A stretch of DNA of 64,000 nucleotides from an uncultured delta proteobacterium (GCA_963827685.1 CAWHBU010000003.1:736001-800000), one strand, 5' to 3'; shown: positions 29,546 through 63,763, counted from the stretch's first letter. The notes: generated by a model from the sequence alone, not told the origin. Numbers and translations: made by a program.

Positions 29546-29564
29546 CCTGCCCCGCATTGCGGGG
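29546..29564. mobile_element. 19-nt CCTG-hairpin micro-element (family II) inside a heptamer array
   Basis: Removing cctgccccgcattgcgggg restores ttccgca atccgaa attcgaa. Confidence 0.65.
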
Positions 29565-29575
29565 CGAAATTCGAA

Positions 29576-30481
29576 TTACTGTTCACCCACCACCTTCACC
29601 TCCCTTTCAAGGGAGATGCCCTTTTCTTCGTAGACTTTCTTTTCTACAAACTCCATCAAACGGACCACCTCTTCAGCCTTGGCCCTCCCCAGATTGATGA
29701 TGAAATTGGCATGGCGCTCTGAAATCATCGCCTGACCTATCCGAAACCCTTTCAGCCCAGCTTCTTCGATCCATTTTCCGGCTGGGCCTTCTTGGGGGTT
29801 TTTGAAAATGGACCCGGCACTGGGATAATCTAAAGGTTGCTTTCTCTTTCTCATCTCCGAATAAGATTTCACCCTTTCAAGAATTTCTTCTTTCTTTCCC
29901 TTCTTCAACTGAAACCTACCCTTGAGAATAATCCAAGAAGAAGGAATGACCAGTCCTCGATAAGAAAATCGAAGCCTCGAACGGGACCTCTCCACGATTT
30001 CTCCATCTTCCCTCATCAACGTCACGGAAAGTAGGACATCCTTCAATTCGGCACCCCAGGCTCCGGCATTCATCGCCACTCCCCCTCCTACGGTTCCAGG
30101 GATGCCGGAAAAGGGCTCGAGCCCTGTCAGCCCCTTCTGAATGGAGAATTGAACCAGTCGTTGAAGGGAGAGACCTGCCTCTGCTTCCACGATCTCTCCA
30201 TCGATCCCGATTTTTTTCATCCCTTGAGTCAGATTGATTACCCATCCCCGTACTCCTTTATCCCTCACAACAAGATTGGTTCCTTTTCCTAAAATCAAAA
30301 AAGGAATTCTTTTTCTCCTGGCACATCGAATCACCTTTCCTAATTCATTCACACCCTTCGGGAAGAAAAGACAATCTGCAGGCCCTCCCACTTTCATCGA
30401 CGTAAACTGCTTCATCGGTACATCGAAAAGAACCCTTCCCTTGATCAGACCCGACGCCCATTTTCTGTAGTCCCTTTGCAT
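29576..30481 (-). CDS. murB: UDP-N-acetylenolpyruvoylglucosamine reductase
   Basis: GIPGTVGG, MNAGAWG, SAGSIFKNP, HANFIIN. Confidence 0.96.
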   Translation of the reverse strand: MQRDYRKWASGLIKGRVLFDVPMKQFTSMKVGGPADCLFFPKGVNELGKVIRCARRKRIPFLILGKGTNLVVRDKGVRGWVINLTQGMKKIGIDGEIVEAEAGLSLQRLVQFSIQKGLTGLEPFSGIPGTVGGGVAMNAGAWGAELKDVLLSVTLMREDGEIVERSRSRLRFSYRGLVIPSSWIILKGRFQLKKGKKEEILERVKSYSEMRKRKQPLDYPSAGSIFKNPQEGPAGKWIEEAGLKGFRIGQAMISERHANFIINLGRAKAEEVVRLMEFVEKKVYEEKGISLEREVKVVGEQ

Positions 30482-30494
30482 CCGCTTCGCGTCT

Positions 30495-30569
30495 GAGTTC
30501 GGAGTTAGGAGTTTTGAGTTCGGAGTTTCTACACATTTCTCCGAACTCCGAACTAATTACTCCGAACTT
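30495..30569. repeat. Inverted heptamer arrays (GAGTTCG / CTCCGAA)
   Basis: gagttcg gagttag gagtttt gagttcg gagtt ... ctccgaa ctccgaa ctaatta ctccgaa. Confidence 0.9.
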
Positions 30570-31943
30570 TCAGTTCAGTCTGCTCACCAACTCCTCTGAA
30601 ACCTGCCAGACATCTCCTGCTCCCAGGGTGATGACCAAATCACCCGGAGAAACAATACGGAGGAGATGCTCAATGATCTCCTCTTTATCTGTTAAATAAG
30701 TGACATCCTTATGGCCATATTCCCGTATCCCCTCGAAAAGGGCTTTCGATTCCACGCCTTCTATGCGATCTTCTCCTGCCGGATAGATATCGGTAAGGAT
30801 GAGGACATCGGCGTCATAAAAAGCAGTGAGAAAATCTTTGAACAGGGCTTGCGTTCTCGTATAGCGATGAGGTTGAAATACCGCGATGATCCTTTTTCCC
30901 CAACCGGTCCGTGCCGCCTTGAGCGTGGCCATAATCTCCACAGGATGATGGCCATAATCATCCACAATGAGAATCCCTTTCTTCTCTCCTTTGATTTGAA
31001 ACCGTCTCTGAATCCCGCTGAAATCGCGCAGCGTTTCTTGGACGACCTGGAAGGGAATATCCAGTTCAAAAGCGGTGGCTAAAGTGGCTAAGGCATTGTA
31101 GACATTATGGAGTCCAGGCATCCGGAGGCTTAATTTGCCTATTTCCTGGCGTTGGTGGATGACATCAAAAGAGGTTGAGAGCCCTTCGAATACAATCTCT
31201 TTCGCTTGAAAGTCCGCTTGCGTGGTCAACCCGTAAGTGGTAAACCGCTTCTTCAATCTCGGAAGAAGACTCTGAATGTTCGGATGATCGAGGCAGAGTA
31301 CGGCCAAGCCGAAAAATGGAATCTTGTTCAAAAAACAGAGGAAGGTCTCTTTGATCTCGTCGATGTCTTTATAATAATCAAGATGTTCTGGGTCGATGTT
31401 GGTCACCACGGCAATGGTGGGCATCAGTTTGAGAAATGAGCCGTCGCTCTCGTCGGCTTCGGCCACCAAGAACTCACCCTGCCCAAGCCTCGCATTGCTT
31501 CCGATACTGTTGAGCCTCCCGCCGATCACCACCGTAGGATCAAGACCACCCGCCGCCAGGACGGTAGAAATGAGGGAGGTGGTCGTGGTCTTCCCATGAG
31601 TTCCCGCGATGGCAATCCCGACCTTCATTCGCATCAACTCTGCCAGCATCTCTGCCCTCGGGATGACAGGGATGAGCCTCTCTTCCGCAGCTTCGACTTC
31701 AGGGTTTCCTTGCCGAACGGCTGAGGAGATGACCACCACGTCCGCTTCTTTCAAATTCTCCTTTCGGTGACCGTAGGAGATTTCGCAGCCCAAAGACCGG
31801 AGTCTTCGGGTCACCTCTGTCTCCTTGACATCGGAACCGCTGATATGGTAGCCGAGGTTAAACAACACCTCGGCAATCCCGCTCATGCCAATCCCGCCGA
31901 TGCCTACAAAATGGATATGCTGGATCTTTCCTCTTCGATACAT
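30570..31943 (-). CDS. murC: UDP-MurNAc-L-Ala ligase
   Basis: [38 protein letters not shown]. Confidence 0.97.
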
Positions 31944-31946
31944 CTC

Positions 31947-32024
31947 AGTTTCTTGTGTTCTCAGTTCATTGAGTTCGTTGAATTAACCCAATAAACTCAA
32001 TAGACCCCATGAACTCAAAGAACC
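31947..32024. repeat. Inverted 9-mer arrays overlapping the murG 3' end
   Basis: agttcattg agttcgttg aatt aacccaata aactcaata gaccccatg aactcaaag. Confidence 0.78.
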
Positions 32025-35673: not shown

Positions 35674-35744
35674 GCCTGCACGCCGTAGTGCAGCGTTTCG
35701 CCTGCCTGCGCGAAGCAGCTTCGGCGAAGGCAGGGTACGCAGGC
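35674..35744. mobile_element. Family I micro-element carrying a 34-nt family II element (35701-35734)
   Basis: Removing cctgcctgcgcgaagcagcttcggcgaaggcagg gives a 37-nt element matching 23094-23131. Confidence 0.75.
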
Positions 35745-50129: not shown

Positions 50130-50387
50130 TTAGATTGGGGGATGAAGGGGGGTTACCTTCAGCGCCAGTTTTGACAAGACGCTCTGTATATCAAGCAGCA
50201 CTTCATTGTTCCAAAAACGCACCACGTCAATTCCCTGCGCTTTTAGATACTCTGAACGGGCTGCATCATATTCTGTGTTATCGCCCTGGTTATGTTGTCC
50301 GCCGTCCAACTCTACCGCAAGCTTCACCGTTGGACAATAAAAGTCCAAAATATAGGGGCCTATGCTGTACTGGCGGAAGAATTTCAT
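50130..50387 (-). pseudogene. N-terminally truncated DUF559 (Vsr-like) endonuclease-domain gene between C/G-rich palindromes
   Basis: KFFRQYSIGPYILDFYC, VELDGGQH, VRFWNNEV; palindromes at 50044-50155 and 50387-50459. Confidence 0.78.
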
Positions 50388-50584
50388 AACTCCCCTTAAC
50401 CCCCCTCTATTCCCCCCTTAACTTAAGGGGGGATGAAGGGGAGTTACACGAGGGGGATGCCACCCACACGAAAGCCGGAAGAACCCGAAATTCTTTAAAA
50501 GTTGACAACGCTTTCATCAAAACTATATGATACCCTACAATAACAAGTCAACCCTGCAATAGCCACATTAGTCATGGCAAGGGC

Positions 50585-50797
50585 GTCATTCCTGCGAAAG
50601 CAGGAATCCAGAAAAACACTGGATTCCGGATCAAGTCCGGAATGACAAACTAATACAAACGCGTTAAATAAATTGTCTTTGCGAGGAATGAAATGACGAA
50701 GCAATCTCGTATTTATGGAGCGAGATTGCCACGCTCTCCCGCCAAGGCGGGATCGCTCGCAATGACACTGTAAAAACATTCAATGCGTTTGCACTAG
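50585..50797. repeat. Two REP-like doublets (GTCATT...AATGAC), the second inside a TIR pair flanked by CTAA/CTAG
   Basis: 50585-50646 and 50675-50766; TACAAACGCGTTAAAT / ATTCAATGCGTTTGCA. Confidence 0.8.
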
Positions 50798-50855
50798 ATA
50801 AGACTTATGCAGTCATTTATAACGGAGGGATGGGTCATGAGGTCGGGAGCATGAG

Positions 50856-51275
50856 ATGAAGTTCGAAACTTACGGAAACTGTTTTGTCTGCGGAGAGAAC
50901 AACCCGAATGGGTTGCGATTGAGTTTTGAGATCGACAAGGAGAGGCAAACCCTCAAAACCACTTTTGTCGCAAATCCAACCTTCCAAGGTTGGGATGGCA
51001 TCGTCCACGGAGGAATTATCAGTACCCTTCTGGACGAAGCAACGGCAAAATTGGTTTACGAATTAGGGTACAAAGCAGTGACGGCATCTTTAGAAATCAG
51101 ATTCAAAAAGCCAGCTCCGATCCTCGAACCACTAAGGATCTACGGAGAGATTACAGAGGTAGGGAAAAGATTGATCAGGGCAAAGGCTCGCGTGGCAAAG
51201 GAGGATGGAACCATTTTGGCGACAGGGATGGCTACCTTCCTTAAGAACAGTTTAGCAAAGGCGGGTTCTCCTTAA
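50856..51275 (+). CDS. PaaI-family hotdog thioesterase
   Basis: CFVCG, HGGIISTLLDE. Confidence 0.9.
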   Translation: MKFETYGNCFVCGENNPNGLRLSFEIDKERQTLKTTFVANPTFQGWDGIVHGGIISTLLDEATAKLVYELGYKAVTASLEIRFKKPAPILEPLRIYGEITEVGKRLIRAKARVAKEDGTILATGMATFLKNSLAKAGSP

Positions 51276-51295
51276 CCCCTCAATCCCTTACGTCT

Positions 51296-52045
51296 TCAAC
51301 CTTTCCTTCGGCTGACCATCCATTGGGCATAATCCGCATCAAACCCAAATCTTTCTAATAAGGCTCGATCCCTAAGCAGTTCCCTCATCGAAAGATCTTC
51401 TATTTTTCTCCCTTCATAGAGCAAAACCGCTCTCTCGCAGAGATCTACCGCCACAGGCAGGTGATGGGTGACGAGGACTTTCGTTTGAGGGATGGATTGG
51501 ATGCGTTCGACCAACAGGCGGCTTCCAGCCGGATCGAGGTTATCCGTGGGCTCATCAAGGGCCAGGATCTCGGAGTCCATGGACAACACAGTGGCCAAAG
51601 CAACCCTTTTCTTTTCCCCTTCACTCAAATGGTGCGCCGACCTTCCTTCAAATCCTTTCAACCCCATCATTTCGAGTGCCTTCGCTACCCGATGCCGAAC
51701 ACTTTCCTCATCCAGTCCCATATTGAGAGGACCGAAAGCCACATCATCAAAGACCGTGGGACAGAAGAGTTGATCCTCCGGGCTTTGGAAGACAAGACCC
51801 ACCCTTCTCCGAATCTCTTTCAGGTTATTTTTCTCAACAGGAATGCCCAAGATAACCACCTTTCCTTCTCCCATCAGCGTTCCATTCAGATGATAGAGCA
51901 GAGTCGACTTGCCGGCTCCATTTGGACCAAGGATCGCGACGGATTCATGTTGATAAACCTCTAAATGGATATCCCTCAAAGCAGGTGTCCCGTCCGGATA
52001 ATGATAAGAGAGGTGGGTGATTTCGATAACTTTATTAGACGTCAT
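51296..52045 (-). CDS. ECF transporter ATPase (CbiO/EcfA-like)
   Basis: GPNGAGKS, FQSPEDQLF, LSEGEKKR, LDEP. Confidence 0.9.
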   Translation of the reverse strand: MTSNKVIEITHLSYHYPDGTPALRDIHLEVYQHESVAILGPNGAGKSTLLYHLNGTLMGEGKVVILGIPVEKNNLKEIRRRVGLVFQSPEDQLFCPTVFDDVAFGPLNMGLDEESVRHRVAKALEMMGLKGFEGRSAHHLSEGEKKRVALATVLSMDSEILALDEPTDNLDPAGSRLLVERIQSIPQTKVLVTHHLPVAVDLCERAVLLYEGRKIEDLSMRELLRDRALLERFGFDADYAQWMVSRRKG

Positions 52046-52809
52046 CCCAGATAGATCCTCATGACAAGGAGAAGTGGAACAAGGGAAAGGAATACGACTT
52101 CGCCCCATCCAAGCCTTTCTGCCGTGGTTTCGGGCATCGTTCCATGATAACCCCTGGAAAGCATCGCCAGATAGACTCTTTCCCCACGGTGAAAACTTCT
52201 CAAGAAAAGGGTTCCGATCATATGCCCGATGACCTGAGTCTGCCAGAGCCATCTCCCTCCAAAGCTTCTTGAATCCCTTGCCCGCTTCATCCGATGCATC
52301 TCATCGATGAGTATAAAAGAATAACGGTACATGAAGGAGGTGAGCATCGTGAAAATTTTGGGGGAGCCTAACTTCTCCATGCCTCTGATCAATTGGGGAA
52401 AGGAGGTGGTAGAAGAAAGCAGAATGATGGAAAAAACTCCTAAACATGATTTGATGACCACATTCCATAGAATCCATAAACCACTCTGGGATACGGAAAG
52501 GCCCCCCAACCCTAAATTGTATCCTCCCCCGACTCCATCTTTCTTCATGAATGGAATGGAAATTGTTACCATCAAGAGAAAAGGGAGGACGACCAGAATC
52601 TTCTTGAGCAAATGGCCTAAGGGAAGTCGCGCCAACAGGGCGATCCCAATGAGAGCCGTGGCCAAAAGACTGAAGAGAAGGAAGGAGGTGGGTTGAGAAC
52701 TCACGCCGATCAAAATAAAAGTGAAGAAGACAATGATCTTTGCCCTGGCGTCCAGATGGTGAATCGGGCTCTCGACATGGCTGTGGTGATCCAAAAAGGC
52801 ATGCCTCAT
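52042..52809 (-). CDS. ECF transporter T component (CbiQ-like)
   Basis: LDARAK, FMYRY, ARDSR, AMLSRG. Confidence 0.9.
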   Translation of the reverse strand: MRHAFLDHHSHVESPIHHLDARAKIIVFFTFILIGVSSQPTSFLLFSLLATALIGIALLARLPLGHLLKKILVVLPFLLMVTISIPFMKKDGVGGGYNLGLGGLSVSQSGLWILWNVVIKSCLGVFSIILLSSTTSFPQLIRGMEKLGSPKIFTMLTSFMYRYSFILIDEMHRMKRARDSRSFGGRWLWQTQVIGHMIGTLFLRSFHRGERVYLAMLSRGYHGTMPETTAERLGWGEVVFLSLVPLLLVMRIYLG

Positions 52810-53663
52810 CAGCTTGCCTTCCTGTCTGATCCGAACCGTCTTGAAAAGTTGAGACCGAGGATCTTTTCCTGATCCTGTTTTGAGAGGCTGGATTCTTCCA
52901 ATTCTTTGAAATATCGCCGAGGTGAAATCAGAGGGAAGTCTGTACCAAAAAAAATCTTTTCGATCCCCACCATCTCTCTGGCGATCGCATAAATTTTCTT
53001 CGAATAGAGAAATGGCGAGGCCGCCGTATCGTAATAGACATTGGTCATGCCCTTGGCCACCTCCGGCATCAACTCGTAGAAGGGAAGCCCACCTCCCCAG
53101 TGCCCTAAAATGATGGGAAGATTTGGAAAGGAGAGGATCAATTCATAAAAGCGTTCAAGAGGCGTCCTTCCCTTCCCGGGGTAGGAATGGCCGATCGTCT
53201 CATTGGTATGGAGAAGAAGAGGAATTCCCCGCTTCTCCATTTGGGAGAGGAGGGGTTTCATGGAATGAATATCCTGAGAAGTCATTTCATCACGGTAGAA
53301 AGCGATCTCCCCTACCCCTCTTGCCCCGCCCTTCACAGCCCGATCTAATTCCTTCCCTGACCAATCTGGATTCGAAAAAAGGAGCATGACAAAAACAATC
53401 AGTCGATTTGGATACCGTGAGGCGGACGCCATCAAATATTGGTTATGAAGGAAGCAGAGATCAGGTTGGCTCCAGGGAAATCCACAAACGACAGAGCGGT
53501 CGATCCCGGATTCGTCCATCGAGGCAATCAAATCCTCCACCCCGGCCATCTTCGACTTTGAATTTTTATAAATGGATGAAAACCCTTCATCCCTCTTGCA
53601 GAAGGCTTCTCGATCTCTTCTCACTTCCTCCGGAAAGATATGCGTATGGCAGTCAATGATCAT
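52809..53663 (-). CDS. Amidohydrolase_2 family protein
   Basis: IDCHTH, GHWGGG, FGTDFP. Confidence 0.88.
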   Translation of the reverse strand: MIIDCHTHIFPEEVRRDREAFCKRDEGFSSIYKNSKSKMAGVEDLIASMDESGIDRSVVCGFPWSQPDLCFLHNQYLMASASRYPNRLIVFVMLLFSNPDWSGKELDRAVKGGARGVGEIAFYRDEMTSQDIHSMKPLLSQMEKRGIPLLLHTNETIGHSYPGKGRTPLERFYELILSFPNLPIILGHWGGGLPFYELMPEVAKGMTNVYYDTAASPFLYSKKIYAIAREMVGIEKIFFGTDFPLISPRRYFKELEESSLSKQDQEKILGLNFSRRFGSDRKAS

Positions 53664-53675
53664 GCTTTTGTCACT

Positions 53676-54245
53676 TCAGGGTTTCCCTTTTGTGAAGCCA
53701 TAATGGCCGATGCATTTCCCGAGATTCCAATACTCATTGGCGCCCGGACAGAAGACCACTGGGAGGACCTTGGCGATATCGATCCGACCCTTCTCCTTTT
53801 GAACTTCTTCCTTGACATGGAGGGCAACGATTTCACCAAGAAAGAGATCATGGCTTCCTAAATAAAGTATTTCTTTAACTTTACATTCCATTTGAACAGG
53901 ACATTCATCGATCAGGGGAGGCTTCACCTTTTGAGCGGCGACCTGCTTCCATCCCATGGATGAAAACTTATCTGTCTCCTTCCCTGAAAGCACGCCACAG
54001 GCATCCACCTTTCTGAGCATCTCTTCAGAGGGAAGATTGACGACGAACTCTTTGGATCGCTTCACACAGGCATGGGAGTATCGTTCTGGCCGGATGGAGA
54101 TACTGATCATGGGAGGGTCTGAGTTGACCACTCCCACCCAAGCCAAGGTGATGATGTTGGGTTTTCCTGCCTCATCCACGCAGGTCACCAAAACGACTGG
54201 CGTAGGCAAAAGCAGGGGTGCGGGTGGCAGACTTTTTCGCCCCAT
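53676..54245 (-). CDS. Flavin reductase family protein
   Basis: PVVLVT, EFVVN, GSHDLFLGEI. Confidence 0.88.
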   Translation of the reverse strand: MGRKSLPPAPLLLPTPVVLVTCVDEAGKPNIITLAWVGVVNSDPPMISISIRPERYSHACVKRSKEFVVNLPSEEMLRKVDACGVLSGKETDKFSSMGWKQVAAQKVKPPLIDECPVQMECKVKEILYLGSHDLFLGEIVALHVKEEVQKEKGRIDIAKVLPVVFCPGANEYWNLGKCIGHYGFTKGKP

Positions 54246-54274
54246 TCTCTTCTCCTTTCTTGGGCCACGTGCCC

Positions 54275-54883
54275 TTATTGGAAAAGGGTTACATCCCCTT
54301 TCCCTTTTCGGATCACTTTCGGAAAATCGTTGGTGAGGTCAATGATGCTGGAATGCTCGGCGACGATCATCCCTCCGTCAATGACAAGGTCCAACTGTCT
54401 TCCGAAGCGCTCTTCGATCTCGACGGGGTCATTGTACAGCCCCTCATCGGGTTTATTAACGCTGGTGCTGATAATCGGGTGCCCCAACTCCTTGACGAGG
54501 GCCAAGCATATCTTGTTGTCAGGAATTCTTATCCCTACCGTATTCTGTTTGGTCATGGCTATCTTTGGAACCAGCTTCGTTGCCTTCAACACAAAAGTAT
54601 AAGCACCCGGAAGCAGACGTTTCATCATTTTATAAGCATAGTTGGCGACATGGGCATACCGACTGATATCCTTCAAATCACAACAGATGAAACTTAACGG
54701 CTTTTTCCCTCCTAATTTTTTCAGGCGATGAACCTTTCGAATTGCCTCGGGGTTGAAGAGGTCGCATCCTATCCCGTAGACCGTATCCGTAGGATATCCC
54801 ATCACACCCCCTCCTTCAAGAACCTCAACAACGTTTCGGATCAATCTTTGTTGCGGATTTTTAGGATTGATGGTGATGATCAT
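54275..54883 (-). CDS. Sua5/YciO/YrdC family protein
   Basis: YPTDTVYG, PGAYT, GIRIP, STSVN. Confidence 0.9.
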   Translation of the reverse strand: MIITINPKNPQQRLIRNVVEVLEGGGVMGYPTDTVYGIGCDLFNPEAIRKVHRLKKLGGKKPLSFICCDLKDISRYAHVANYAYKMMKRLLPGAYTFVLKATKLVPKIAMTKQNTVGIRIPDNKICLALVKELGHPIISTSVNKPDEGLYNDPVEIEERFGRQLDLVIDGGMIVAEHSSIIDLTNDFPKVIRKGKGDVTLFQ

Positions 54884-54962
54884 TACTCACTCTCCTTCGT
54901 CGAGATAAATATGATAACCAAATCACAAATTCCAAATTTCAATTACCATCGGTATTTGAATT

Positions 54963-55153
54963 TATAGTGAACGCCATAAATAAGTTGACATCCGCGTCGT
55001 GTCATTGCGAACGAAGTGAAGCAATTTCACGGGATTGCCACGCCTGCGTGCCGAAACTTCATACTACTAAGAATCCCTGTGTTCAAGCACTCCGGCGTGC
55101 AGGCACGTCGCTTCGCTCCTCGCAATGACCACTTTATTAAGGCGTTCACTATA
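54963..55153. mobile_element. TIR-bounded REP doublet with a family I insert (55042-55104)
   Basis: TATAGTGAACGCC / GGCGTTCACTATA around GTCATTGCGA...TCGCAATGAC. Confidence 0.75.
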
Positions 55154-55155
55154 GT

Positions 55156-56127
55156 TCAACTCTCCTTCTCCAACTCCTTCACCCGGACTCCTCTGAGAAA
55201 GCGTTGGCTGTAATAAGGGGCATCCAAATGATCTATTTTCACCTCTCTGCTGTAAGAAGAGGCGTGGACAAATTGATTATCACCAACGTAAATTCCCACA
55301 TGAGCACGATTCCCACGCCGTTTAAAAAAGACCAGATCCCCCTCCTCCAACTGGTCCTTTTCCACCTTCTTCCCTACCTTAAACTGTTCCCGGGTAGTTC
55401 TGGGAAGCTGAATATTAAAAATTTCATAGATCTTTTTCACAAACGCAGAACAGTCAATCCCCTTTAATGTAGATCCTCCTAATTTATACGGTGCTCCTAA
55501 AAAGGTCTTCGCAACCCTTACCAAGAGACTCCTCTCCTCTAAATTGCTCCATTTCCCAAGAGGGGTAGAGGCGACTGGCTCTCCTTTCTCCCCTTCTGCC
55601 TGTGAAGCTCCTGCAATTTCCTCCCCATCCCTTGCCTCTTTTGCCTCCTCCTCCAACATACCCTCATCTTCTGAAAGAAGAAGGATTTGACCAATCTTTA
55701 AGGCGGAGGTACGGAGGCCGTTCATCTTCTTAATTTCTTCTATCGGAATACCGACCTTCTTTGAAATACTGTAAAGGCTATCTCCCTTCTGTACGACATA
55801 AGAGTCCATTTCTCCAGAGGTTCTTTTTACGGTCGCAGCCAAAAGTTTTTTAGGTTGCGAGCTTGGAGACTTTTTCGCAGACTCCTCCACTTTCTTTTCT
55901 CTCAGGGATGGAATGATGAGAACCTGTTTGGGCCTAATCGAATCTCCACCCAATGCATTCCTTTTTTTCAACGCCTCAATGCCGACACCAAATGATTTTG
56001 AAATTTTATAGAGCGTATCTCCCGGTTTGACCGTGTATTTCTCCTCTGCCCATCCTTTCTGGTAAACGCCAAACAATAGTAATGAGACGATCAATCCCAT
56101 CCCAAGAATTTTCAATGGCCTGATCAT
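55156..56127 (-). CDS. LysM x2 + NlpC/P60 peptidoglycan endopeptidase
   Basis: YTVKPGDTL, YVVQKGDSL, GIDCSAF, HVGIY. Confidence 0.93.
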   Translation of the reverse strand: MIRPLKILGMGLIVSLLLFGVYQKGWAEEKYTVKPGDTLYKISKSFGVGIEALKKRNALGGDSIRPKQVLIIPSLREKKVEESAKKSPSSQPKKLLAATVKRTSGEMDSYVVQKGDSLYSISKKVGIPIEEIKKMNGLRTSALKIGQILLLSEDEGMLEEEAKEARDGEEIAGASQAEGEKGEPVASTPLGKWSNLEERSLLVRVAKTFLGAPYKLGGSTLKGIDCSAFVKKIYEIFNIQLPRTTREQFKVGKKVEKDQLEEGDLVFFKRRGNRAHVGIYVGDNQFVHASSYSREVKIDHLDAPYYSQRFLRGVRVKELEKES

Positions 56128-56371
56128 AAGATCCCTCCTCTCTTGATGAAGGACAGTCTTCCCTTTTTGAAACACCGGGTAAAGATGGAGAAGGATAAAA
56201 CCCCGTTCAAAATAATGTGATTTGAAACTCCACCCTTTCGGAAAGGTATTAAGCTCTCAAATGCCGCTCATCCCTTTATCAAAACAGGGTTTCCTATCGG
56301 GGTAAATTGGATGAATGATAGGCTTTATTTATACAAAACTTAGGATCAGAAGTCAAACCTGACCATCCGCC

Positions 56372-56545
56372 CCCAAATCCCGATTTAGGATACGGTCTTT
56401 GCGAGCGAAGCGAAGCAATCTCGCTTTTCGCGATGAGATTGCCACGCTTGCGCGCCGGAGCGCTTCAGCGCGCAGGCACGCACCTTTCAGGTGCTCGCAA
56501 TGACGGATTGAGAAAGGGCTTCCCTTTTCTAAATCGGAATTTGGG
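56372..56545. mobile_element. TIR-bounded REP doublet with a family I insert (56446-56477)
   Basis: CCCAAATCCCGATTTAG / CTAAATCGGAATTTGGG around GTCTTTGCGAG...CTCGCAATGAC. Confidence 0.72.
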
Positions 56546-56587
56546 TTCTCCCCTTTGCGAGGAGGGTGGGGAAACCGCTTAAGAGGA

Positions 56588-57661
56588 TCATTCCTGAATG
56601 AGGAGGATGCGGACGATCACTCGACGCTCTTCATCGGTCGCCAGTTTTGCCGGCTCTTTACTTTTTTTGTCGACCTCTTCTTTCTTCACTCCTTGCGCTA
56701 ACGTCAAATCTCCTGTGACGTGTTCTTTGGGGACCGCCTTACCTGCGTGGGGAGAAGCGCTCAATTCTGCCAATTCTTTTTCAAACTCTGAAAATGAACC
56801 CGTCGGAAGAGAAGCGAGGAACCTATCCCCTTCTGTCGTGACAATCTCTCCTCCGAATTGTTTGACCAGCTCGTGAACCTGGGAGATCGCCTTTTCCCGA
56901 TCGGAGATTCTCAGGACGATTTCTTGAGGAGGTTTCGAAGCCATAGCTAACTTGTCCTGGGCAGATAGTCCTTTCTCAACTTTCTCCAGTTCTGAGGATG
57001 GGACTTTTGCCCTCGCCGCCTCCTTCATCAAATCAAATGTGTGGTACCTCATGACTTCAGTGTTTGGAGAAGGTGTCTCCGCCTTTTTCGCCTCTGCCTT
57101 TACCTGTGGAGTGTAGGCTTCTGATTTTTCCTCTCCCGGGACAGCGGTCTTAGCCTGCTCAACATCCTTTGGACGGGGTGCCTCAGGAGGTGTTTTCAAA
57201 GTCCCTCGCGTTCTCTCCACCTCTTTTTGAGGCAATACCTGTTCAGGCTTTTCCTTTAAAGAAAGAGGTGAAGATGCTCGCTCGGTCTCCTTCGGGCGAT
57301 ATCCCTCCATGGGCATCATCTTTGTCAGATAGAGCACTAAGAATACGACGGCCACCATAGCTACTGCCTGGACCGGAAGTCTCAATGAGAGCGGGACGCT
57401 AAACCATCTTTCTGTGACCTTCTTGGCCGGAGCGATCCTTTTTCGTTCTTCCATTTTTTTATGAAGTTCGGGGAGAAATCCAGCCGGCACCTCCACCTCT
57501 CCGACAGAGTGAAGCCATCGCATCGTTTTCTCGAATTGTTCGAATTCCCTCTGGCACGCTGGGCACGAAGAAAGATGTTCTTTGACGATCTTCTCCTCAA
57601 CGGCCGTCAACTCCTTTTCCCACAAGGAGGAAAACCGATCCCGCATTGTTTCACAATTCAT
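56588..57661 (-). CDS. Zinc-binding anti-sigma factor (zf-HC2) with TM helix
   Basis: HLSSCPAC motif; directly downstream of the ECF sigma gene. Confidence 0.85.
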   Translation of the reverse strand: MNCETMRDRFSSLWEKELTAVEEKIVKEHLSSCPACQREFEQFEKTMRWLHSVGEVEVPAGFLPELHKKMEERKRIAPAKKVTERWFSVPLSLRLPVQAVAMVAVVFLVLYLTKMMPMEGYRPKETERASSPLSLKEKPEQVLPQKEVERTRGTLKTPPEAPRPKDVEQAKTAVPGEEKSEAYTPQVKAEAKKAETPSPNTEVMRYHTFDLMKEAARAKVPSSELEKVEKGLSAQDKLAMASKPPQEIVLRISDREKAISQVHELVKQFGGEIVTTEGDRFLASLPTGSFSEFEKELAELSASPHAGKAVPKEHVTGDLTLAQGVKKEEVDKKSKEPAKLATDEERRVIVRILLIQE

Positions 57662-57678
57662 AGACCCTCCTCCTTTCT

Positions 57679-58269
57679 CTAATGAGCGGACCTCTCTAAT
57701 ACCTGCTTCAGATCCATTCTTGCCCTGTGGAGTCTTGATTTGATGGTCCCCTCGGGAAGGCCGAGCAATTCACCCATCTCTTCATAAGAAAATCCCTGAA
57801 GGTCTCTCAGCACAAGTAACTCCCTCTGATCTTCTTTCAGTTTCTGAAGCCCCCCCTGAATCAACTGTTGAATCATCTTCTTTTCATAGAGCGTTTCCGG
57901 ATTACCAGAAGGATCATAGATGGCTTTCGGCACATCCCCGTCTTCTGTCTCGATCGGATCGTCCAGTGAATCGGAATTGAAATATTGCCTCCGTTTTAAA
58001 TATTTCCAGCGGTTCCGACAGTGGTTTAAAGTGATCTGCGTGAGCCAGGCATCAAATTTGACCTCCTCCTTCAGATCCTTGATCGCCTCGAAGACCGAGA
58101 TGAAAACCTCCTGAGCCAAATCCTTTGCCTCTTCCAAATTGCCCAACATCCGGTAAGCGATGTTGAATACCTTTTTCTGGCAGTGAAGCACAATCTCTGC
58201 AAAGGCCTTTTCGTCCCCAGCCTTGCAGTTCTCAATCACCTCTTTTTGAATCTTGGGAGAAGTCTTCAT
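57679..58269 (-). CDS. ECF RNA polymerase sigma factor
   Basis: AKDLAQEVF, FDAWL, SYEEM...GTIKSRLHRAR. Confidence 0.93.
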   Translation of the reverse strand: MKTSPKIQKEVIENCKAGDEKAFAEIVLHCQKKVFNIAYRMLGNLEEAKDLAQEVFISVFEAIKDLKEEVKFDAWLTQITLNHCRNRWKYLKRRQYFNSDSLDDPIETEDGDVPKAIYDPSGNPETLYEKKMIQQLIQGGLQKLKEDQRELLVLRDLQGFSYEEMGELLGLPEGTIKSRLHRARMDLKQVLERSAH

Positions 58270-58419
58270 CAAAGACCTATTCTTCCCCTTATTCTATAGA
58301 CACCGTGAGATCGGTTTTTGTTCCATTTTTTTAGGGATGAGCGTTGAACGTCAATCCCTTATCAAATCTCTCCTCCCGCTGCTTCACCGTAAGGAATGAA
58401 AACATCAGGAAGGAGTATG

Positions 58420-58567
58420 TGAAGCCTCCCGCCTACAAGGCGGGGCTTCCCGGTAAGGACTTATTGTTTTATATTTTCCCCTTCCTGCCTGCCCCGCCCT
58501 CGGTCGGGACCGGGGCCGATAGGCAGGGACCCCGCCTACAATGCGGGACAGGGTCTGTTCCGGTCAA
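58420..58567. mobile_element. Double-hairpin MITE, family B, with a family II insert at 58484-58527
   Basis: TGAAGCCTCCCGCCTACAAGGCGGGGCTTCCCGG...CCGGTCAA; second copy at 63637-63763. Confidence 0.75.
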
Positions 58568-58711
58568 GCTGAATCGATTTTTTAAGATATCACTAAAAAT
58601 GGCATGGGTTGTCAAGTTTAAAAATTATTTGATTTTTCTTAAGTAGGTACCTATAATTTGAAAAAGTGGAATAGACTTTTCAGGCTCCATTAAAAAGGAG
58701 GTGATGGGAAC

Positions 58712-59005
58712 ATGAAGAGAGTAATATCTACTGTCTTGTCGTTGCTCTTGATGGGTATGTTCATTTCAGCGGTGGTGGGATGTGGGGCAGATATCAAGGC
58801 AGAAAATGAGAAACTGAAAGCAGAAAACACCAGCCTCAAATCGGACAACGACAAATTGAAGCTGGATGTGCAGAAGTTGAAGGAGGATGTCCAGAAGGCA
58901 GCTGAGAAGGATGCGACCATCGGCACCCTCAAGGCAGAGAACGAGGCCTTGAAAAAGCAGGTCGAAGACCTGAAGGCCCAATTGGCGAAAAAAAAGAAAA
59001 AATAG
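58712..59005 (+). CDS. Small coiled-coil lipoprotein
   Basis: RBS AGGAGGTG; lipobox VVGC; heptad repeats LKAEN. Confidence 0.8.
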   Translation: MKRVISTVLSLLLMGMFISAVVGCGADIKAENEKLKAENTSLKSDNDKLKLDVQKLKEDVQKAAEKDATIGTLKAENEALKKQVEDLKAQLAKKKKK

Positions 59006-59027
59006 TCGTACGGTGATGAAATCATCA

Positions 59028-59361
59028 TGGAGCCCCACAGGTAAACACATGCTTGCGCGCCGACGTGGTTGCCTTCGCTGAAGTTTTAGCGCAAGCAGGC
59101 TTCGCGCACGCAGGTGCTACAGCACGCAGACGTGGTACCTCCATGAAATACCCGCCTACGCCAACCTGCCCGCCGAACCTGCCTCTGCCGAAGCGGCTAC
59201 GCGCAGGCAGGCAAGTTCTTTGGCAGGCGGGGGCTTCGGCGGGTTATCCGCCAGCAGCGAAATCCGCCGGAGCATCCAAACCTCGGCTAATGATGGATTT
59301 TGAAACAATTCACGCATTCATCCACGACCAAAGGCCGTGGTCTTCTGCGTAGGCGGATAAA
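59028..59361. mobile_element. Family A MITE with several nested micro-elements
   Basis: Ends match 4013-4133; inserts at 59051-59131 and 59151-59243. Confidence 0.7.
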
Positions 59362-59397
59362 AAGGGAAGACCCCGACCTAAGGGTTTTCCCTTTTTT
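59361..59397 (+). terminator. Intrinsic terminator
   Basis: AAAGGGAAGACCC-loop-GGGTTTTCCCTTTTTT. Confidence 0.7.
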
Positions 59398-59415
59398 GGT
59401 TCATTCTTTCTCCTT

Positions 59416-61878
59416 ATGGAAATGGAAGAACAAAATCATACCCAAGAAAGAGGAAAAAAGGGATGGCCGTTCTATGTCGTCTACGCCTTTATCCTCTCTA
59501 CCCTTTTATTTCTCATTTCTGGAGCCTTGCTCTTTTACTATTACTCCCATCATCTCCCTGATTTCACAACGCTGAAAGGGCAAAATCTCAATGCTTACTC
59601 CGTTGTTTATTCCGAAGAAGATGAGGTGATCGGAAAATTTTTGATGGACAACCGAATCCCCATCCCTTATGAGCGGATTCCAAAACTATTGGTAAAGGCA
59701 TTCATCGCTGCGGAGGATGCGGAATTCTTCCAGCATAAAGGAGTGGATTACAAGGGGATACTCCGCGCAATGTTCAAGAACCTCATCGCTGTGAGGATCG
59801 TCCAGGGAGGAAGCACCATCACTCAGCAGATGACCAAGACTTTTTTTCTTACGCCAAAGAGAAGTTTGCTTCGAAAGCTAAAGGAGGTCGCCTACGCCTT
59901 CGGTCTGGAGCGGGATTTAAGCAAAGAAGAGATCCTCACCCTTTACCTCAATAATATTTATTTAGGAAATGGAGCCTATGGGGTGGAGGCCGCTTCCGAA
60001 AGTTACTTCAATAAACCGGTGGATCAACTCAATTTGGCAGAGATGGCCATGATGGCTGGCCTGGTAAAGGCCCCCAGCCGTTATTCGCCGATCAACAATT
60101 TAAGAAGGGCCAGAGATCGGCAGGCCTACGTTCTCACCCGCATGACCGAATTGGACTTCATTTCCCAAGAGCAGAAAGAAAAAGCCCTTCGGATTTCTCT
60201 TAAAATTCAAACGAGGGAAAGCGCTTATTTCAGCAAGGCACCCTACTTCACCGAGCTCATTCGGCATCAGGTAGAAAGAAAGTATGGGAAGGAGAAGCTA
60301 TACCAGGAAGGCCTGAGGATTTACACCACGCTCGATCTATCCCTTCAGAGAACGGCTCAAAAATCAGTGGACATGGGGTTAAGGGAACTGGATAAGAGGG
60401 AGGGATTCCGAGGCCCCCTCCACACTGTTTCTCCGAAGGAGGTGAAGGAACTTCTCAATAAAAAGAAAGGATCACTCACCTCCCTCTCCCAAAAAGAGAG
60501 TTTCGAAGGGGTGATCCTCTCTAAGGATGACTCGAAAAAATTCTACACCGTCTGGGTAGAAGATCGAAAAGGAATTCTCCCTTTCTCCGAAATGGCCTGG
60601 GCCCTCAACATCAAACCCACACCGAGCTACAAACCCCAAAAAGTGAAAACCCCTGGAGATCTTCTCAATCCAGGAGATGTGGTTTATATTCGCGTAAAAG
60701 AACCTTATAAAAAAGACCCCTCCCCGATACTCACCTTAGAACAAGAACCTCTCGTTCAGGGTGCTTTGCTCTGTCTTGATCCGAAAACCGGATATATCCG
60801 AGCCATGGTCGGAGGCCGTGATTTCAGTGAGAGCCAATTTAACCGGGCGATCTTTTCCCGCAGACAACCCGGTTCGGCCTTCAAACCTATTATCTATGCA
60901 GCAGCCTTGGAGAAGGGCTATACCCCCTCCACCATTGTCATGGATTCCCCGGTGGAGTATTCAGATCCCGATGGAGGAACTTATTGGGCGCCAAAGAATT
61001 ATGATCAAGATTTTATGGGGCCCATCACCTTCCGGAATGCCTTGGCTCATTCCAGAAATGTCGTCACCGTCAAAATCCTTGATGACATCGGGGTGGGTTA
61101 CGCCCTCAAATTCATCAAAAGGATGGGGATTGAATCTCCGATTAAAAGGGATCTCTCCATTGCGCTCGGTACCTCAGCAATCTCCATGCCGGAATTGACT
61201 TCCGCCTTTGCCGTCTTTGCCAACGGAGGGGAACGGGTCAAACCCATCTTCATCAAAAAGATCGTCACCATGAAAGGCGAAGTCCTTGAGGAAAACACGC
61301 CTTATATTGAAATGGAGGAAAAAGAGGAAGAAGATGAAACACCCGAAACCCCTTCTTCCGTGTTAAAGGAACAGGTGATCTCGCCGCAAAATGCTTTTAT
61401 CATGACTCATCTCCTCCAGGGAGTTGTCCAGCACGGGACAGGCCAGAGGGCAAAAGTTCTCGGAAGGCCGGTCGCTGGGAAAACCGGAACCTCCAGCGAC
61501 TATTCCGATGCATGGTTCATTGGATACGCTCCCTCTCTTCTTGCCGGGGTCTGGGTGGGCTTTGATGACAAGACGTCTCTAGGGAGAGGTGAGTCCGGGG
61601 CTCGGGCAGCCCTCCCCATCTGGATTTCTTTTATGGATCAGGCTTTGAAAAATACTCCTATCGAAACCCCTAAGCCTCCTAAAGGCATTGCACTCATCAA
61701 AGTGAACCTCGAAACAGGACTACCCAGCGATGGGGATTCCCCAGAAACGATCGTGGAGGCATTTATTGACAGCTCGATCCCCTGGAAGAAAGAGGGGCAC
61801 GAAGAGGAAAGTTCTCCTTCGGGGACTCCGGTCCCAAGAGGGTCTCCTGATGATCCTTCTCCCCCGTTATCCCATTAA
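59416..61878 (+). CDS. mrcA: Class A penicillin-binding protein 1A
   Basis: AAEDAEF, QGGSTITQQ, RKLKE, QPGSAFKP, SRN, KTG. Confidence 0.93.
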   Translation: MEMEEQNHTQERGKKGWPFYVVYAFILSTLLFLISGALLFYYYSHHLPDFTTLKGQNLNAYSVVYSEEDEVIGKFLMDNRIPIPYERIPKLLVKAFIAAEDAEFFQHKGVDYKGILRAMFKNLIAVRIVQGGSTITQQMTKTFFLTPKRSLLRKLKEVAYAFGLERDLSKEEILTLYLNNIYLGNGAYGVEAASESYFNKPVDQLNLAEMAMMAGLVKAPSRYSPINNLRRARDRQAYVLTRMTELDFISQEQKEKALRISLKIQTRESAYFSKAPYFTELIRHQVERKYGKEKLYQEGLRIYTTLDLSLQRTAQKSVDMGLRELDKREGFRGPLHTVSPKEVKELLNKKKGSLTSLSQKESFEGVILSKDDSKKFYTVWVEDRKGILPFSEMAWALNIKPTPSYKPQKVKTPGDLLNPGDVVYIRVKEPYKKDPSPILTLEQEPLVQGALLCLDPKTGYIRAMVGGRDFSESQFNRAIFSRRQPGSAFKPIIYAAALEKGYTPSTIVMDSPVEYSDPDGGTYWAPKNYDQDFMGPITFRNALAHSRNVVTVKILDDIGVGYALKFIKRMGIESPIKRDLSIALGTSAISMPELTSAFAVFANGGERVKPIFIKKIVTMKGEVLEENTPYIEMEEKEEEDETPETPSSVLKEQVISPQNAFIMTHLLQGVVQHGTGQRAKVLGRPVAGKTGTSSDYSDAWFIGYAPSLLAGVWVGFDDKTSLGRGESGARAALPIWISFMDQALKNTPIETPKPPKGIALIKVNLETGLPSDGDSPETIVEAFIDSSIPWKKEGHEEESSPSGTPVPRGSPDDPSPPLSH

Positions 61879-61899
61879 ACGCCATGCGCATAGCGGTTG

Positions 61900-61927
61900 C
61901 CTGCCCTGTACCATGCTAGGTTCAGGG
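61900..61927. mobile_element. 28-nt CCTG-hairpin micro-element (family II)
   Basis: cctg-ccctg...caggg within a degenerate heptamer run. Confidence 0.5.
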
Positions 61928-62045
61928 CCTGCCAGCAGGCCGGCTAAGCGCTTAGCGTTTTTATCCGTTAACAATCGGAGGCAACATGAAAGACGAGGAA
62001 ATAAAGGATACATTGTGACCTTCCCCTGAAAAAGTGGACATATAG

Positions 62046-62903
62046 TTAAGTTTCATTAAGGAGCTTTTCATACTGCTCTGGGCTCCTGTACCCTAATGCC
62101 GAATGACTCCTCTGACGATTATAAAACACTTCCACGTACTCAAAAATACTAAGCCTCGCCTCCAGCCTTGAACGGTACCGCTCACCATGGACCAACTCCG
62201 TCTTGAGCGTGCCAAAGAAAGACTCCACATAGGCATTATCATAACAATTGCCACTTCTGCTCATACTAGGAGTCATGCCGTATTCTCTTAAAAGCTCCTG
62301 ATAGGCATAGCTTGCATACTGCCTGCCTCGATCAGAATGGTGGATCAACCCTTCAGAGGGGCTTTGCCTGCCCACCGCGTCCCTGAGCGCAGCAGAAGCT
62401 AGCTCCTGAGAGAGCTTATCGCTCATGGACAGCCCAATGATCTTTCTGCTTTTCACATTCATCACTGCTGCCACATAGAGCCATCCCTCAGAAGTGGGCA
62501 CAAACGTAATATCAGATGCCCATACCCCCTCTGTCTGCCTCTGGTCAATCAGTAAGTTTGCAGCCAAGGCATAATGATGCCGTGAATCGGTAGTCCGCCT
62601 GAATCTCTTTTTCTTCACTTCTGCCCATATGGAGTGCTCTTTCATGATCCTGGCTACCCGGTTCTTCCCACATCTAAGACCCTGCTTATTGAGCTCCGCT
62701 GCGATCCGCGGACTCCCATAGAGCCTTCTGCTTTGAGTGTGGATCTCCCGTATGTGCCCCAGCAACTCCTCATCGTCTTTCTGACGTGTGCTCGGTTGAC
62801 GCGTCTTCCACGCATAATAACCACTTCTGGATACCTTCAACACTTCACTCATACTCCTTATCTTGTAGGTCTCTCTGTGCTCTTCTATCAACCGATACTT
62901 CAT
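62046..62903 (-). CDS. IS3 OrfB (DDE integrase core)
   Basis: WASDITF, HSDRGRQY, DNAYVESFF. Confidence 0.93.
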   Translation of the reverse strand: MKYRLIEEHRETYKIRSMSEVLKVSRSGYYAWKTRQPSTRQKDDEELLGHIREIHTQSRRLYGSPRIAAELNKQGLRCGKNRVARIMKEHSIWAEVKKKRFRRTTDSRHHYALAANLLIDQRQTEGVWASDITFVPTSEGWLYVAAVMNVKSRKIIGLSMSDKLSQELASAALRDAVGRQSPSEGLIHHSDRGRQYASYAYQELLREYGMTPSMSRSGNCYDNAYVESFFGTLKTELVHGERYRSRLEARLSIFEYVEVFYNRQRSHSALGYRSPEQYEKLLNET

Positions 62904-63196
62904 CTGTTTCGTTTGGAGAATACGGCCAAGGCTTTTTTTAAAATGTCCCTCTCTTCCTTCACCTTTTCTAATTCCTTCCGGAGCCCCTTTATTTCCGCTT
63001 CCTCTGGCGTTACACGGCCCTTCCCTACGAAGGCTTTATCCCCTTTAGCTAAGAACCTCCTCCTCCATAGATGAAGAAGATTGGGATGGATATCAAGCTC
63101 TCGGGCCACCTTGCCTACCGGCATCCCTTTCTCTGTGACCAACTGCACTGCATCTCGTTTGAACTCACGGCTGAAATGACGATTCTTTTCCCCCAT
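62900..63196 (-). CDS. IS3 OrfA (HTH), with A7G -1 frameshift motif at 62932-62939
   Basis: FSREFKRDAV...ERDILKKA. Confidence 0.9.
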   Translation of the reverse strand: MGEKNRHFSREFKRDAVQLVTEKGMPVGKVARELDIHPNLLHLWRRRFLAKGDKAFVGKGRVTPEEAEIKGLRKELEKVKEERDILKKALAVFSKRNR

Positions 63197-63636
63197 ACGC
63201 ACCTCCTGTCCAATGATACAAATTCTCAGGTGTGTCCATCAACTCGGGGGAAGGTCATTGCGTAACTTTAAGACAGTCGCTGTGGTAGGAATTTCTCCAA
63301 AAGAGGATCGTCCCAGCTATATCGTGGCATCCTATCTTAAATCGAAGGGATATCGGATCATCCCGGTTCGCCCTAACGGGGATGAGATTCTGGGGGAAAA
63401 GGTATACCACAGCCTTTCAGAAATTCCCAAAGAGATCAGAGTGGATGTCGTTGATATTTTCCGAAGATCGGAAGATGTACCACCCGTTGTGGAAGAGGCG
63501 ATCCAGCAAGGAGCCAAAGTGGTCTGGATGCAGGAAGGCGTGATTCACAAAGAGGCGGGGGAAAAAGCAGAGAAGGCTGGGTTAAAGGTGGTCATGGATC
63601 GCTGCATGAAGAAAGAGCACCAGCGCCTCCTTTAAT

Positions 63637-63763
63637 TGAAGCTCCCCGCCCACAGGGCGGGGCTTCCCGGAAAGGAAATTTCATTCTGATTGTGCCCCTT
63701 GACCCCGCCTACCTGCCTACCGCAGGCAGGCAAGGCGGGGCTTGCAGGGCACTTGCCGGTCAA
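63637..63763. mobile_element. Family B MITE with a 19-nt family II insert (63712-63730)
   Basis: Removing cctgcctaccgcaggcagg restores the hairpin ccccgcctacaaggcgggg. Confidence 0.78.

Follow-up and report, generated by a model that had tools for sequence, protein, structure and literature searches.

A 20-nucleotide hairpin family with precise insertions in an uncultured delta proteobacterium and its coupling, in other bacteria, to a clade of small GIY-YIG genes

A 64,000-nt stretch of DNA from an uncultured delta proteobacterium (hereafter the window; C3:736001–800000 of an assembly, G000, of 5.23 Mb in 14 contigs that is 94.5% complete) contains short hairpin units that interrupt other repeats, and it raises the question of whether these units are inserted DNA and what would insert them. 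The original prediction, made on the window alone, had grouped eight such units as one family. Six of the eight listed sites (35701, 49205, 58484, 59165, 59178, and 63712) are precise insertions without target duplication. They belong to a family headed by a 20-mer, CCTGCCTACCGGCAGGCAGG, with 50 exact copies in G000, none of which lies in the window. In many uncultured bacteria, the same 20-mer is physically coupled to a clade of genes for single-domain GIY-YIG proteins of 80–90 amino acids. We are much more confident in the descriptive core of these results, that is, in real and exact insertions of a cross-phylum family of 20-nt hairpins without target duplication, than in the nuclease that we propose as their partner.

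For the empty-site test, the 14 nt on each side of a unit were joined and searched against G000 with ≤3 mismatches (all window features are given on the plus strand). At 63712–63730, a 19-nt family member, CCTGCCTACCGCAGGCAGG, lies in the loop of a hairpin between CCCCGCCTA and CAAGGCGGGG, part of a host repeat called “family I.” The joined flanks have 24 empty paralogues in G000, the best with 0 mismatches in 28 nt, and only if exactly 19 nt are removed. A 44-nt member with the ends CCTGCCT...AGGCAGG (58484–58527) interrupts another family I copy between CCCCTT and GACCCC. When both units are taken out, the two sister host copies (58420–58580, split by the 44-mer, and 63637–63790, split by the 19-mer) align collinearly through both junctions. 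A second, near-identical 44-mer is found at C3:809742 in a different host hairpin.

The other sites are restored in the same manner. A 19-nt variant, CCTGCCTACCTCAGGCAGG, lies at 49205–49223 within a CTATGCG-type heptamer array, and its removal yields uninterrupted heptamer arrays that are matched elsewhere in G000 (four empties at shift (0,0) and 12 at (+1,+1)). At 35701–35734, a 34-nt member, which is a one-base variant of the family's 34-mer read on the opposite strand, occupies a CGTGCCTGCACGCC...GGCACGCAGGCGTG host repeat; once it is removed, three paralogues cross the junction at 88% identity. Positions 59165–59231 form a 67-nt composite of a 33-nt outer hairpin element, CCTGCCCGCCGAA...TTTGGCAGGCGGG, and a 34-nt family member nested in it (59178–59211). 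The joined flanks of the composite have four matches in G000 (best 28/28), and the outer element itself is found four times elsewhere without the 34-mer (best 1 mismatch in 28).

The two remaining units start with CCTGCC, do not end in GGCAGG, and fall outside the CCTGCC...GGCAGG family as different hairpin types. The unit at 29546–29564, CCTG followed by CCCCGCATTGCGGGG in an ATTCCGC-type heptamer array, has a single copy in G000 and no junction-spanning paralogue there, the heptamer phase after removal being intact by eye only. The unit at 61900–61927, a hairpin of the CCCTG...CAGGG type beside an IS3-family insertion, has two copies in G000, with neither a convincing empty site nor a junction-spanning paralogue. 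Of the five sites at which removal had been said to restore the host, 35701, 49205, 58484, and 63712 are confirmed and 29546 is not; with 59165 and 59178, which are restored as well, the proposed family of eight retains six sites. The “CCTG foot plus hairpin” fold ascribed to all of them describes the 29546 and 61900 units, in which CCTG is joined to a different hairpin. The 19-, 20-, 34-, and 44-mers, folded as single-stranded DNA, form blunt hairpins in which CCTGCCT (first seven nucleotides) pairs with AGGCAGG (last seven), as in the blunt 7-bp hairpin of the 19-mer at 63712–63730, and the core family therefore has no separate 4-nt foot.

The pattern CCTGCC(3–33 nt)GGCAGG has seven matches in the window versus 0.08 in dinucleotide-preserving shuffles. 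The matches fall at six places (28991, 35701, 49205, 58484, 59178, and 63712), of which the string match at 28991–29010, absent from the original prediction, lies inside a probable coding stretch and was left out of the element count. Across G000, the core consensus is a 20-nt near-palindrome, CCTGCCT(A/G)CCGG(C/T)AGGCAGG. The 20-mer and the 34-mer CCTGCCTTCGCCGAAGCGGCTTCGCGCAGGCAGG (32 exact copies, 55 within two mismatches) are the two most frequent 14-mer families of this genome; the 19-mer has nine exact copies. The lengths of the 297 CCTGCC..GGCAGG pairs in G000 form discrete peaks.

A boundary-shift matrix defines the ends of the units. Empty sites appear almost only on its diagonal, with the maximum at or adjoining shift 0 (shift (0,0) in 32 of 50 20-mers, 5 of 9 19-mers, and 25 of 32 34-mers), so that target duplication is excluded and the boundaries are fixed to within one ambiguous C. 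Insertion without target duplication had been predicted, and the empties indeed arise essentially only upon removal of exactly 20, 19, or 34 nt. The 50 exact 20-mers occupy 38 flank contexts; 32–33 have an empty paralogue and 17–18 do not, which makes the statement that the units sit only in other repeats too strong. Among pairs up to 6 kb apart, 86 have empties and are 16 to 102 nt long. The larger ones are 34-mers carrying further nested hairpins, and no gene-sized autonomous element with the same ends is found among them.

Hosts of the 20-mer in G000 are repetitive extragenic palindromes (REPs) of the GTAG type, in which the insert lies in the loop, CCCTCTCCCC...GGGGAGAGGG hairpins, heptamer arrays, and the 20-mer itself. 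Nine family I hosts, although clearly diverged, carry an identical insert at one shared position and in one orientation. The region has no match in Rfam. A sequencing or assembly artefact was rejected as the source of these units: the copies lie mid-contig in structured contexts, they occur in isolates as well as metagenome-assembled genomes, and reversed-pattern controls gave 0. A likeness to the 16S 341F region and to type I-F CRISPR repeats was set aside as a presumed coincidence.

The exact-length removals, the 38 contexts, and the intact targets of 40 of 74 metagenomic hairpins (see below) uphold the predicted class of ultra-small mobile DNA on the basis of paralogues, not alleles; mobility is inferred from filled and empty paralogues. 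In six to seven same-genus genomes, the spacers corresponding to window positions 63636–63789 and 49150–49260 are wholly different small-repeat mosaics between conserved genes. This implies a very fast turnover of small elements and leaves no clean single-indel comparison of orthologous empty sites. The orthologous spacers of 49205–49223 in five same-genus genomes, for instance, are heptamer arrays without the unit, too diverged for a clean allele comparison.

The 20-mer is by no means confined to this organism. Exact copies occur at ≥123 loci in species-representative genomes, in records titled Bacteroidota, Patescibacteria/CPR (Candidate Phyla Radiation), Nitrospirota, Chloroflexota, Planctomycetota, Omnitrophota, Ignavibacteria, and others, cultured isolates included, and in distant records it is likewise placed in hairpin loops and heptamer arrays. 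Five distant genomes carry 39 (G031, Stahlbacteria, 1.3 Mb), 169 (G032, Bacteroidales), 5 (G033, Ignavibacteria), 26 (G034, the isolate Olivibacter oleidegradans CCM 7765), and 33 (G035, Bacteroidales) exact copies. Closer to the window organism, the 20-mer is present in 14 of 14 same-genus genomes (4–38 copies) and in one sister genus (18 copies), and it has 0 copies in 15 genomes of seven other genera of the class. In a sample of the phylum, 12 of 401 genomes contain it, multi-copy only in the family of the window organism, and copy numbers within one genus were 0, 0, 0, 1, and 22. The 34-mer follows the same distribution among the relatives (16 of 31 genomes) and is missing from the five distant genomes; it is therefore a local derivative. 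A full-text literature search found neither exact 20-mer-type strings nor anything relevant on such nested hairpin insertions without target site duplication.

In Olivibacter, the 20-mers are clustered and co-oriented, with seven in 32 kb (C5:2603792–2635950) and four in 52 kb (C1:815936–867764), most of them at a single phase boundary of heptamer arrays of the CATCACT or CTTGATA type. A phage vector was also considered and rejected, as only 14 viral stretches carry the 20-mer and viral contigs contain no close relative of the GIY-YIG clade.

The insertion junctions have C or A on the left and C or T on the right: of 136 flanks drawn from many phyla, 75 have C and 37 have A at position −1, whereas 96 have C and 31 have T at position +1. 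Sites are enriched for loops of structures that can form in single-stranded DNA, namely those of REP and terminator hairpins, the D, anticodon, and T loops of tRNAs, and hairpins of the family's own kind, and heptamer arrays are used too. Perfect stems of ≥6 bp surround the junction at 21 of 130 sites versus 57 of 1040 control positions. In one genome, insertion is usually into the loop of related hairpins, between CCTGTCTAC and CGACAGG.

What, then, could insert such a unit? The original prediction placed the mobilizer outside the window, in agreement with 0 Y1 transposase and 0 GIY-YIG matches within it, and pointed to RAYT, GIY-YIG, or other nuclease genes flanked by units as the place to look. 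In G000, no gene flanked by units is found, RAYT or other; no RAYT so flanked is found in G031, and Olivibacter has no Y1_Tnp match at all. The search for GIY-YIG genes beside units was negative in G000 and positive in other genomes. In G031, a small GIY-YIG open reading frame (ORF), P0001, has the 20-mer on both sides and lies within a duplicated tRNA-Arg. In G249, from the family of the window organism, an ORF at locus L279 is 46% identical to P0001, with a truncated tRNA-Asn copy holding two 20-mer-type hairpins just upstream and an intact tRNA-Asn just downstream. PF01541 is hit at 61–65 bits, over nearly the full length, by P0001 (84 aa), the L279 ORF (92 aa), and two relatives from metagenomes. 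Over 63 residues, P0001 also shares 35% identity with an SsnA-like protein encoded between ATTCC..GGAAT repeats.

A scan of metagenome contigs with the alignment of P0001 and L279 gave 80 loci, in which a 20-mer was counted at ≤3 substitutions from CCTGCCTGCCGGCAGGCAGG. It is found ≤150 nt upstream of the ORF in 52 loci, mostly 17–42 nt away, ≤200 nt downstream in 13, and in either position in 59. Five of the 21 loci without it have a same-ended hairpin (36 nt in four, 32 nt in one), which takes the usual upstream place in four loci and, in the fifth, lies both downstream of the ORF and further upstream. An exact match to the four-variant consensus is present in 50 of the 80 clade loci versus 0 of 42 loci of other small GIY-YIG subfamilies. 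Where the hairpins are asymmetric, 10 of 12 upstream copies share one orientation relative to the gene.

These loci also provide a view of the insertion sites that does not depend on paralogues in G000. By our own tally, the ORF is followed in 48 of 60 loci by an intact same-strand tRNA (Arg, Asn, Leu, Lys, Gln, or Met) that starts ≤70 nt away, and the DNA upstream of the clade ORFs is a truncated copy of that tRNA. Within the truncated copy, the hairpin occupies one of several places: the D-loop (between TA and GAGC), the 26/27 junction, the anticodon loop, or the T loop. When the flanks of a hairpin are joined (12 + 9 nt, ≤1 mismatch), the intact tRNA of that locus contains them without a break for 40 of 74 hairpins, at shift (0,0) in 37 and (−1,−1) in 3. 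Independently and across organisms, the intact tRNAs thus confirm that insertion is exact and leaves no target duplication.

Other small GIY-YIG subfamilies also reside inside duplicated tRNA genes, some of them in tandem (L262/L264/L267 in G033, L261 in G032, and L281, L291, and L295–L298 in relatives), and the truncated tRNA copy is interrupted in each by a different small hairpin. A GIY-YIG gene in a tRNA duplication with a hairpin looks to be a general arrangement that is apparently undescribed; the literature search found no paper linking GIY-YIG, tRNA genes, and such hairpins. G000 itself has an SsnA-like small GIY-YIG gene (C5:121252–121476) between ATTCC(C/T)GC....GC(G/A)GGAAT hairpins of the published NTS/SRM type, and this ATTCC..GGAAT repeat is identical across loci of different phyla. 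At C3:1158370–1158800, a tandem array of at least six ∼65-nt units lies directly upstream of a small GIY-YIG gene beside the signal recognition particle (SRP) RNA gene. In the relatives G003 and G015, the homologue of this GIY-YIG gene is instead preceded by CCCTGAAC...GTTCAGGG hairpins, which resemble the unit at 61900.

The gene–repeat layout recalls the Ssn nucleases, proteins of the cd10448 clade whose cutting is sequence-specific and spares duplex DNA and RNA. Chenal et al. (2025, PMC11893778) describe these as small GIY-YIG nucleases of a single domain, which cleave single-stranded DNA next to the hairpin repeats that belong to them. The same text describes ssn genes flanked by their NTS/SRM repeats, which are also scattered genome-wide with a wide and patchy distribution, and reports the cognate gene in 81% of repeat-rich genomes, some repeat-rich genomes lacking it. 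The 20-mer clade shares with this system a GIY-YIG gene that is very small and encodes a single domain, with its own hairpin in the flanks at 59 of 80 loci, and a hairpin repeat of the 20–50-nt class with many dispersed copies and a patchy range. In contrast to the ATTCCC..GGGAAT hairpins of Ssn/SRM, that of the 20-mer family is CCTGCCTGCCGGCAGGCAGG, a bare, blunt 20-nt hairpin with precise insertion and no target duplication, and its gene is lodged in a tRNA duplication whose truncated copy carries the hairpin in the D-loop. The words “tRNA” and “target site duplication” do not appear in the main text of PMC11893778, and 12 of its 14 supplement files, when searched, gave no CCTGCCTGCC-type string. 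Also unlike the 81% of repeat-rich Ssn/SRM genomes, the 94.5% complete G000 assembly has no cognate cassette. The likeness is one of Pfam GIY-YIG match and of gene and repeat layout; single-strand cutting by the 20-mer clade is putative, as is a place for it in cd10448.

By analogy with Ssn, we lean, by a small measure, toward reading the 20-mer as the cognate hairpin of an Ssn-like single-strand nuclease clade that has been orphaned in G000. The small GIY-YIG protein would bind the folded hairpin on single-stranded DNA and nick at its foot, and the nicked hairpin would be copied or ligated into another exposed loop, preferentially near the gene. From there it could spread among paralogous host repeats by gene conversion. 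In G000, the 20-mer and its local derivatives (19, 34, and 44 nt and the nested composites) would be either orphaned or served in trans.

A number of observations weigh against this explanation. G000 has no cognate cassette, and its four small GIY-YIG genes are neither flanked by units nor adjacent to a tRNA. In the 14 same-genus genomes, the best homologues are ≤45% identical, and the 10 loci examined lack the 20-mer. Two relatives with ∼20 copies each (G359 and G158) have no cassette either, and Olivibacter, with its 26 exact copies, has neither a small GIY-YIG gene nor a match to P0001. Where homologues exist in the copy-rich genomes G032 (169 copies) and G035 (33 copies), they are flanked by other hairpins. 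No gene family recurs beside 20-mers across G000, G034, G031, and G035, a comparison that covered 50 of 50, 26 of 26, 30 of 39, and 30 of 33 copies, respectively, and the GIY-YIG clade is not found on viral contigs. Because a GIY-YIG nuclease leaves no covalent intermediate, it would explain the cutting and not by itself the joining step. The association of the 20-mer with GIY-YIG genes could, moreover, arise from dead tRNA copies being good neutral targets; this is countered by the other tRNA-lodged GIY-YIG subfamilies, which carry other hairpins there and not the 20-mer. On the side of mobility, Logan contigs of four runs from four studies on window positions 44001–64000 are of small length and are interrupted by repeats. 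Joints that skip 59165–59231 are seen in short contigs from two public runs; Logan contigs also end loosely at 58484 and 63731, and they show the 19-mer converted to the 20-mer by an inserted G. Paralogues may be the source in each case. As such short, repeat-broken contigs may owe their joints to paralogues, they yield no allelic evidence of presence or absence.

The rival that survives best, although we hold it to be unlikely, needs no dedicated mobilizer: replication or repair (template switching at palindromes, arm duplication) together with gene conversion would spread the hairpins, and the GIY-YIG neighborhood would reflect the tolerance of dead tRNA copies. Most multi-copy genomes examined do lack the cassette, nested self-insertions can be read as paired arm duplications, and the refilling of the same site within one host family fits gene conversion. 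The identity of the 20-mer across many phyla and in 38 unrelated contexts of one genome, with a junction homology of ∼1 nt, nevertheless calls for a sequence-specific agent. Likewise, the exact consensus in 50 of 80 versus 0 of 42 loci is specific to one clade, although other small GIY-YIG genes share the tRNA duplications. Arm duplication also does not account for the hosts in G031, as their stems differ in sequence from the insert.

More doubtful still is that the units are REP-type elements moved on single-stranded DNA by an HUH/Y1 transposase, either RAYT or the TnpA of IS200/IS605. Y1 enzymes insert without target duplication into single-strand-prone sites, so the insertion mode fits, and G000 has 25 Y1_Tnp matches (21 IS200 copies and four divergent genes). 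However, the RAYT-like genes of G000 (C6:428228) and G031 (L151) are flanked by their own GTAG-plus-hairpin REPs, the four divergent genes have no CCTGCC units in their flanks, and the IS200 end hairpins are unrelated to the units. Olivibacter holds 26 copies with 0 Y1_Tnp matches, the orientation of the elements shows no link to GC skew (22 co-oriented, 28 opposed), and the core hairpin has no separate foot of the kind expected of REPs.

The Y1 genes themselves have a recognizable setting. The RAYT-like gene of G000 (C6:428228–428560) is of the classical type, with GTAGCGTCGGCATTTAATGCCGAC-type and GTAGCGCCCCC-type REPs in its flanks, and these GTAG-REPs (∼39 copies) themselves host the 20-mer; the RAYT of G031 likewise has its own REPs around it and even within it. 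The IS200-type element of G000, ∼545 bp long, is found at 21 loci (e.g. C4:636157 and C3:933286) with 18 identical and three near-identical transposases, and its end hairpins are CCGCCCAGCTCTGCTGGGCGG and CCCCGCAGCTCTGCTGCGGGG.

That the units are host-selected functional sites, such as protein-binding sites or terminator modules, whose identity reflects selection and not recent movement, is similarly improbable: most copies lie between genes (an open frame of ≥150 aa covers 15 of 50 20-mer copies versus 80% of random positions) and they are highly uniform (50 exact copies versus 33 listed variant strings within three edits, reverse-strand readings of exact copies included), but they lie in the loops of other repeats, in each other, and in truncated tRNA copies, number from 0 to 22 within one genus, occupy orthologous spacers that are unrelated mosaics, and fall in a region without an Rfam match.

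The known classes of small elements can be set against the same features. REP/REPIN sequences and their RAYT genes are short palindromic extragenic repeats tied to one small gene, as described in the text of Bertels and Rainey (2011, PMC3116915). The 20-mer family resembles them in coupling a short palindromic extragenic repeat to one small nuclease-type gene that is typically repeat-flanked. Unlike them, it has no GTAG (CTAC) foot and no flanked RAYT, and it is a single hairpin, not a doublet; G000 in addition has a separate classical REP/RAYT pair whose REPs act as hosts. IS200/IS605 elements insert without target duplication and recognize hairpins on single-stranded DNA. In contrast to their miniature derivatives, the unit is 20 nt and not >100 nt long, its ends differ from those of the resident IS200, and it has neither a conserved 4–5-nt left target nor a strand bias. 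Unlike miniature inverted-repeat transposable elements (MITEs) of DDE transposons, which combine terminal inverted repeats with a target site duplication, the family has no duplicated flank that the shift matrix would support. By the features tested, it is thus not a REP/RAYT family, an IS200 derivative, or a MITE family.

A closer likeness is found in the small dispersed repeats (SDRs) of Nostocaceae, which Elhai and colleagues are said to have described in 2008 as hairpin repeats of ∼20 nt in heptamer arrays and other repeats, apparently mobile and with no known mobilizer. Both are dispersed hairpins nested in heptamer arrays and other repeats and apparently inserted, the SDRs at ∼21–27 nt and the 20-mer family at 19–20 nt with 34- and 44-nt derivatives; the likeness is drawn by description, not by sequence. 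The text of PMC5861425 reports SDRs only in Nostocaceae. The 20-mer family, in contrast, occurs in a non-cyanobacterial anaerobe and in many phyla and has a candidate partner gene. As a further parallel, our family can be compared with organellar palindromes. Fungal mitochondrial GC clusters and double-hairpin elements are tiny GC-rich palindromes in genomes with many GIY-YIG endonuclease genes. Mobile GIY-YIG ORFs, for their part, can bring along a duplicate of part of the gene that they enter and so restore it upon insertion. The fungal elements are organellar and unrelated in sequence to the 20-mer, and the literature search found no bacterial counterpart of the target-restoring arrangement.

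A stronger form of the nuclease-partner explanation, which we put forward only tentatively and with less confidence, is that the bare 20-nt hairpin may be the smallest known mobile DNA unit, recognized at its foot and moved in trans by an 80-aa GIY-YIG single-strand nuclease, whose own gene would be a separate selfish cassette that enters tRNA genes and restores them. The two would form a two-part, cross-phylum parasite of unchanged sequence that seeds derivatives such as the 34-mer and outlives the loss of the nuclease, and the Nostoc SDRs may be of the same kind.

Further features of the window and its genome stand apart from the hairpin family. Genes for the 23S rRNA IVS (intervening sequence) four-helix-bundle protein (PF05635) were considered as the cause of the units; they are present in every genome tested, including 15 relatives without the 20-mer, and therefore cannot account for its distribution. 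G000 has 18 PF05635 genes, of which the one at window positions 2009–2305 (C3:738009–738305) and those at 15 other loci are flanked by inverted arrays, each with a different heptamer. It follows that the hairpin-hosting heptamer arrays represent arms of palindromic elements, with or without a gene. The IS3-family insertion sequence beside the 61900 unit extends from 62011 to 63255, contains HTH_Tnp_1 and rve ORFs, and has ≥14 near-identical copies in G000. None of the same-genus genomes compared has it at this site, nor do contigs from two public runs, and the insertion is therefore recent. Two 85-nt copies of a C-rich/G-rich hairpin repeat (43786–43870 and 50071–50155) are 99% identical and match microRNA models weakly, at chance level.

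The filled and empty sites with their exact boundaries provide the first sequence-level evidence that hairpin repeats coupled to an Ssn-type gene are inserted and not merely retained. Together with them comes an undescribed gene arrangement, in which a GIY-YIG gene stands between a hairpin-disrupted tRNA copy and a restored tRNA, and a putative new hairpin/nuclease specificity for single-strand DNA tools. The cultured Olivibacter oleidegradans CCM 7765, with 26 copies and neither candidate enzyme, makes the question of a host factor accessible to a direct test. If the nuclease-partner explanation is true, it would supply a candidate enzyme for very small mobile repeats that have long been unexplained and would widen their range from Nostocaceae to many phyla. 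For the genus of the window organism, hairpin insertion accounts for the unrelated mosaics in its orthologous intergenic spacers.

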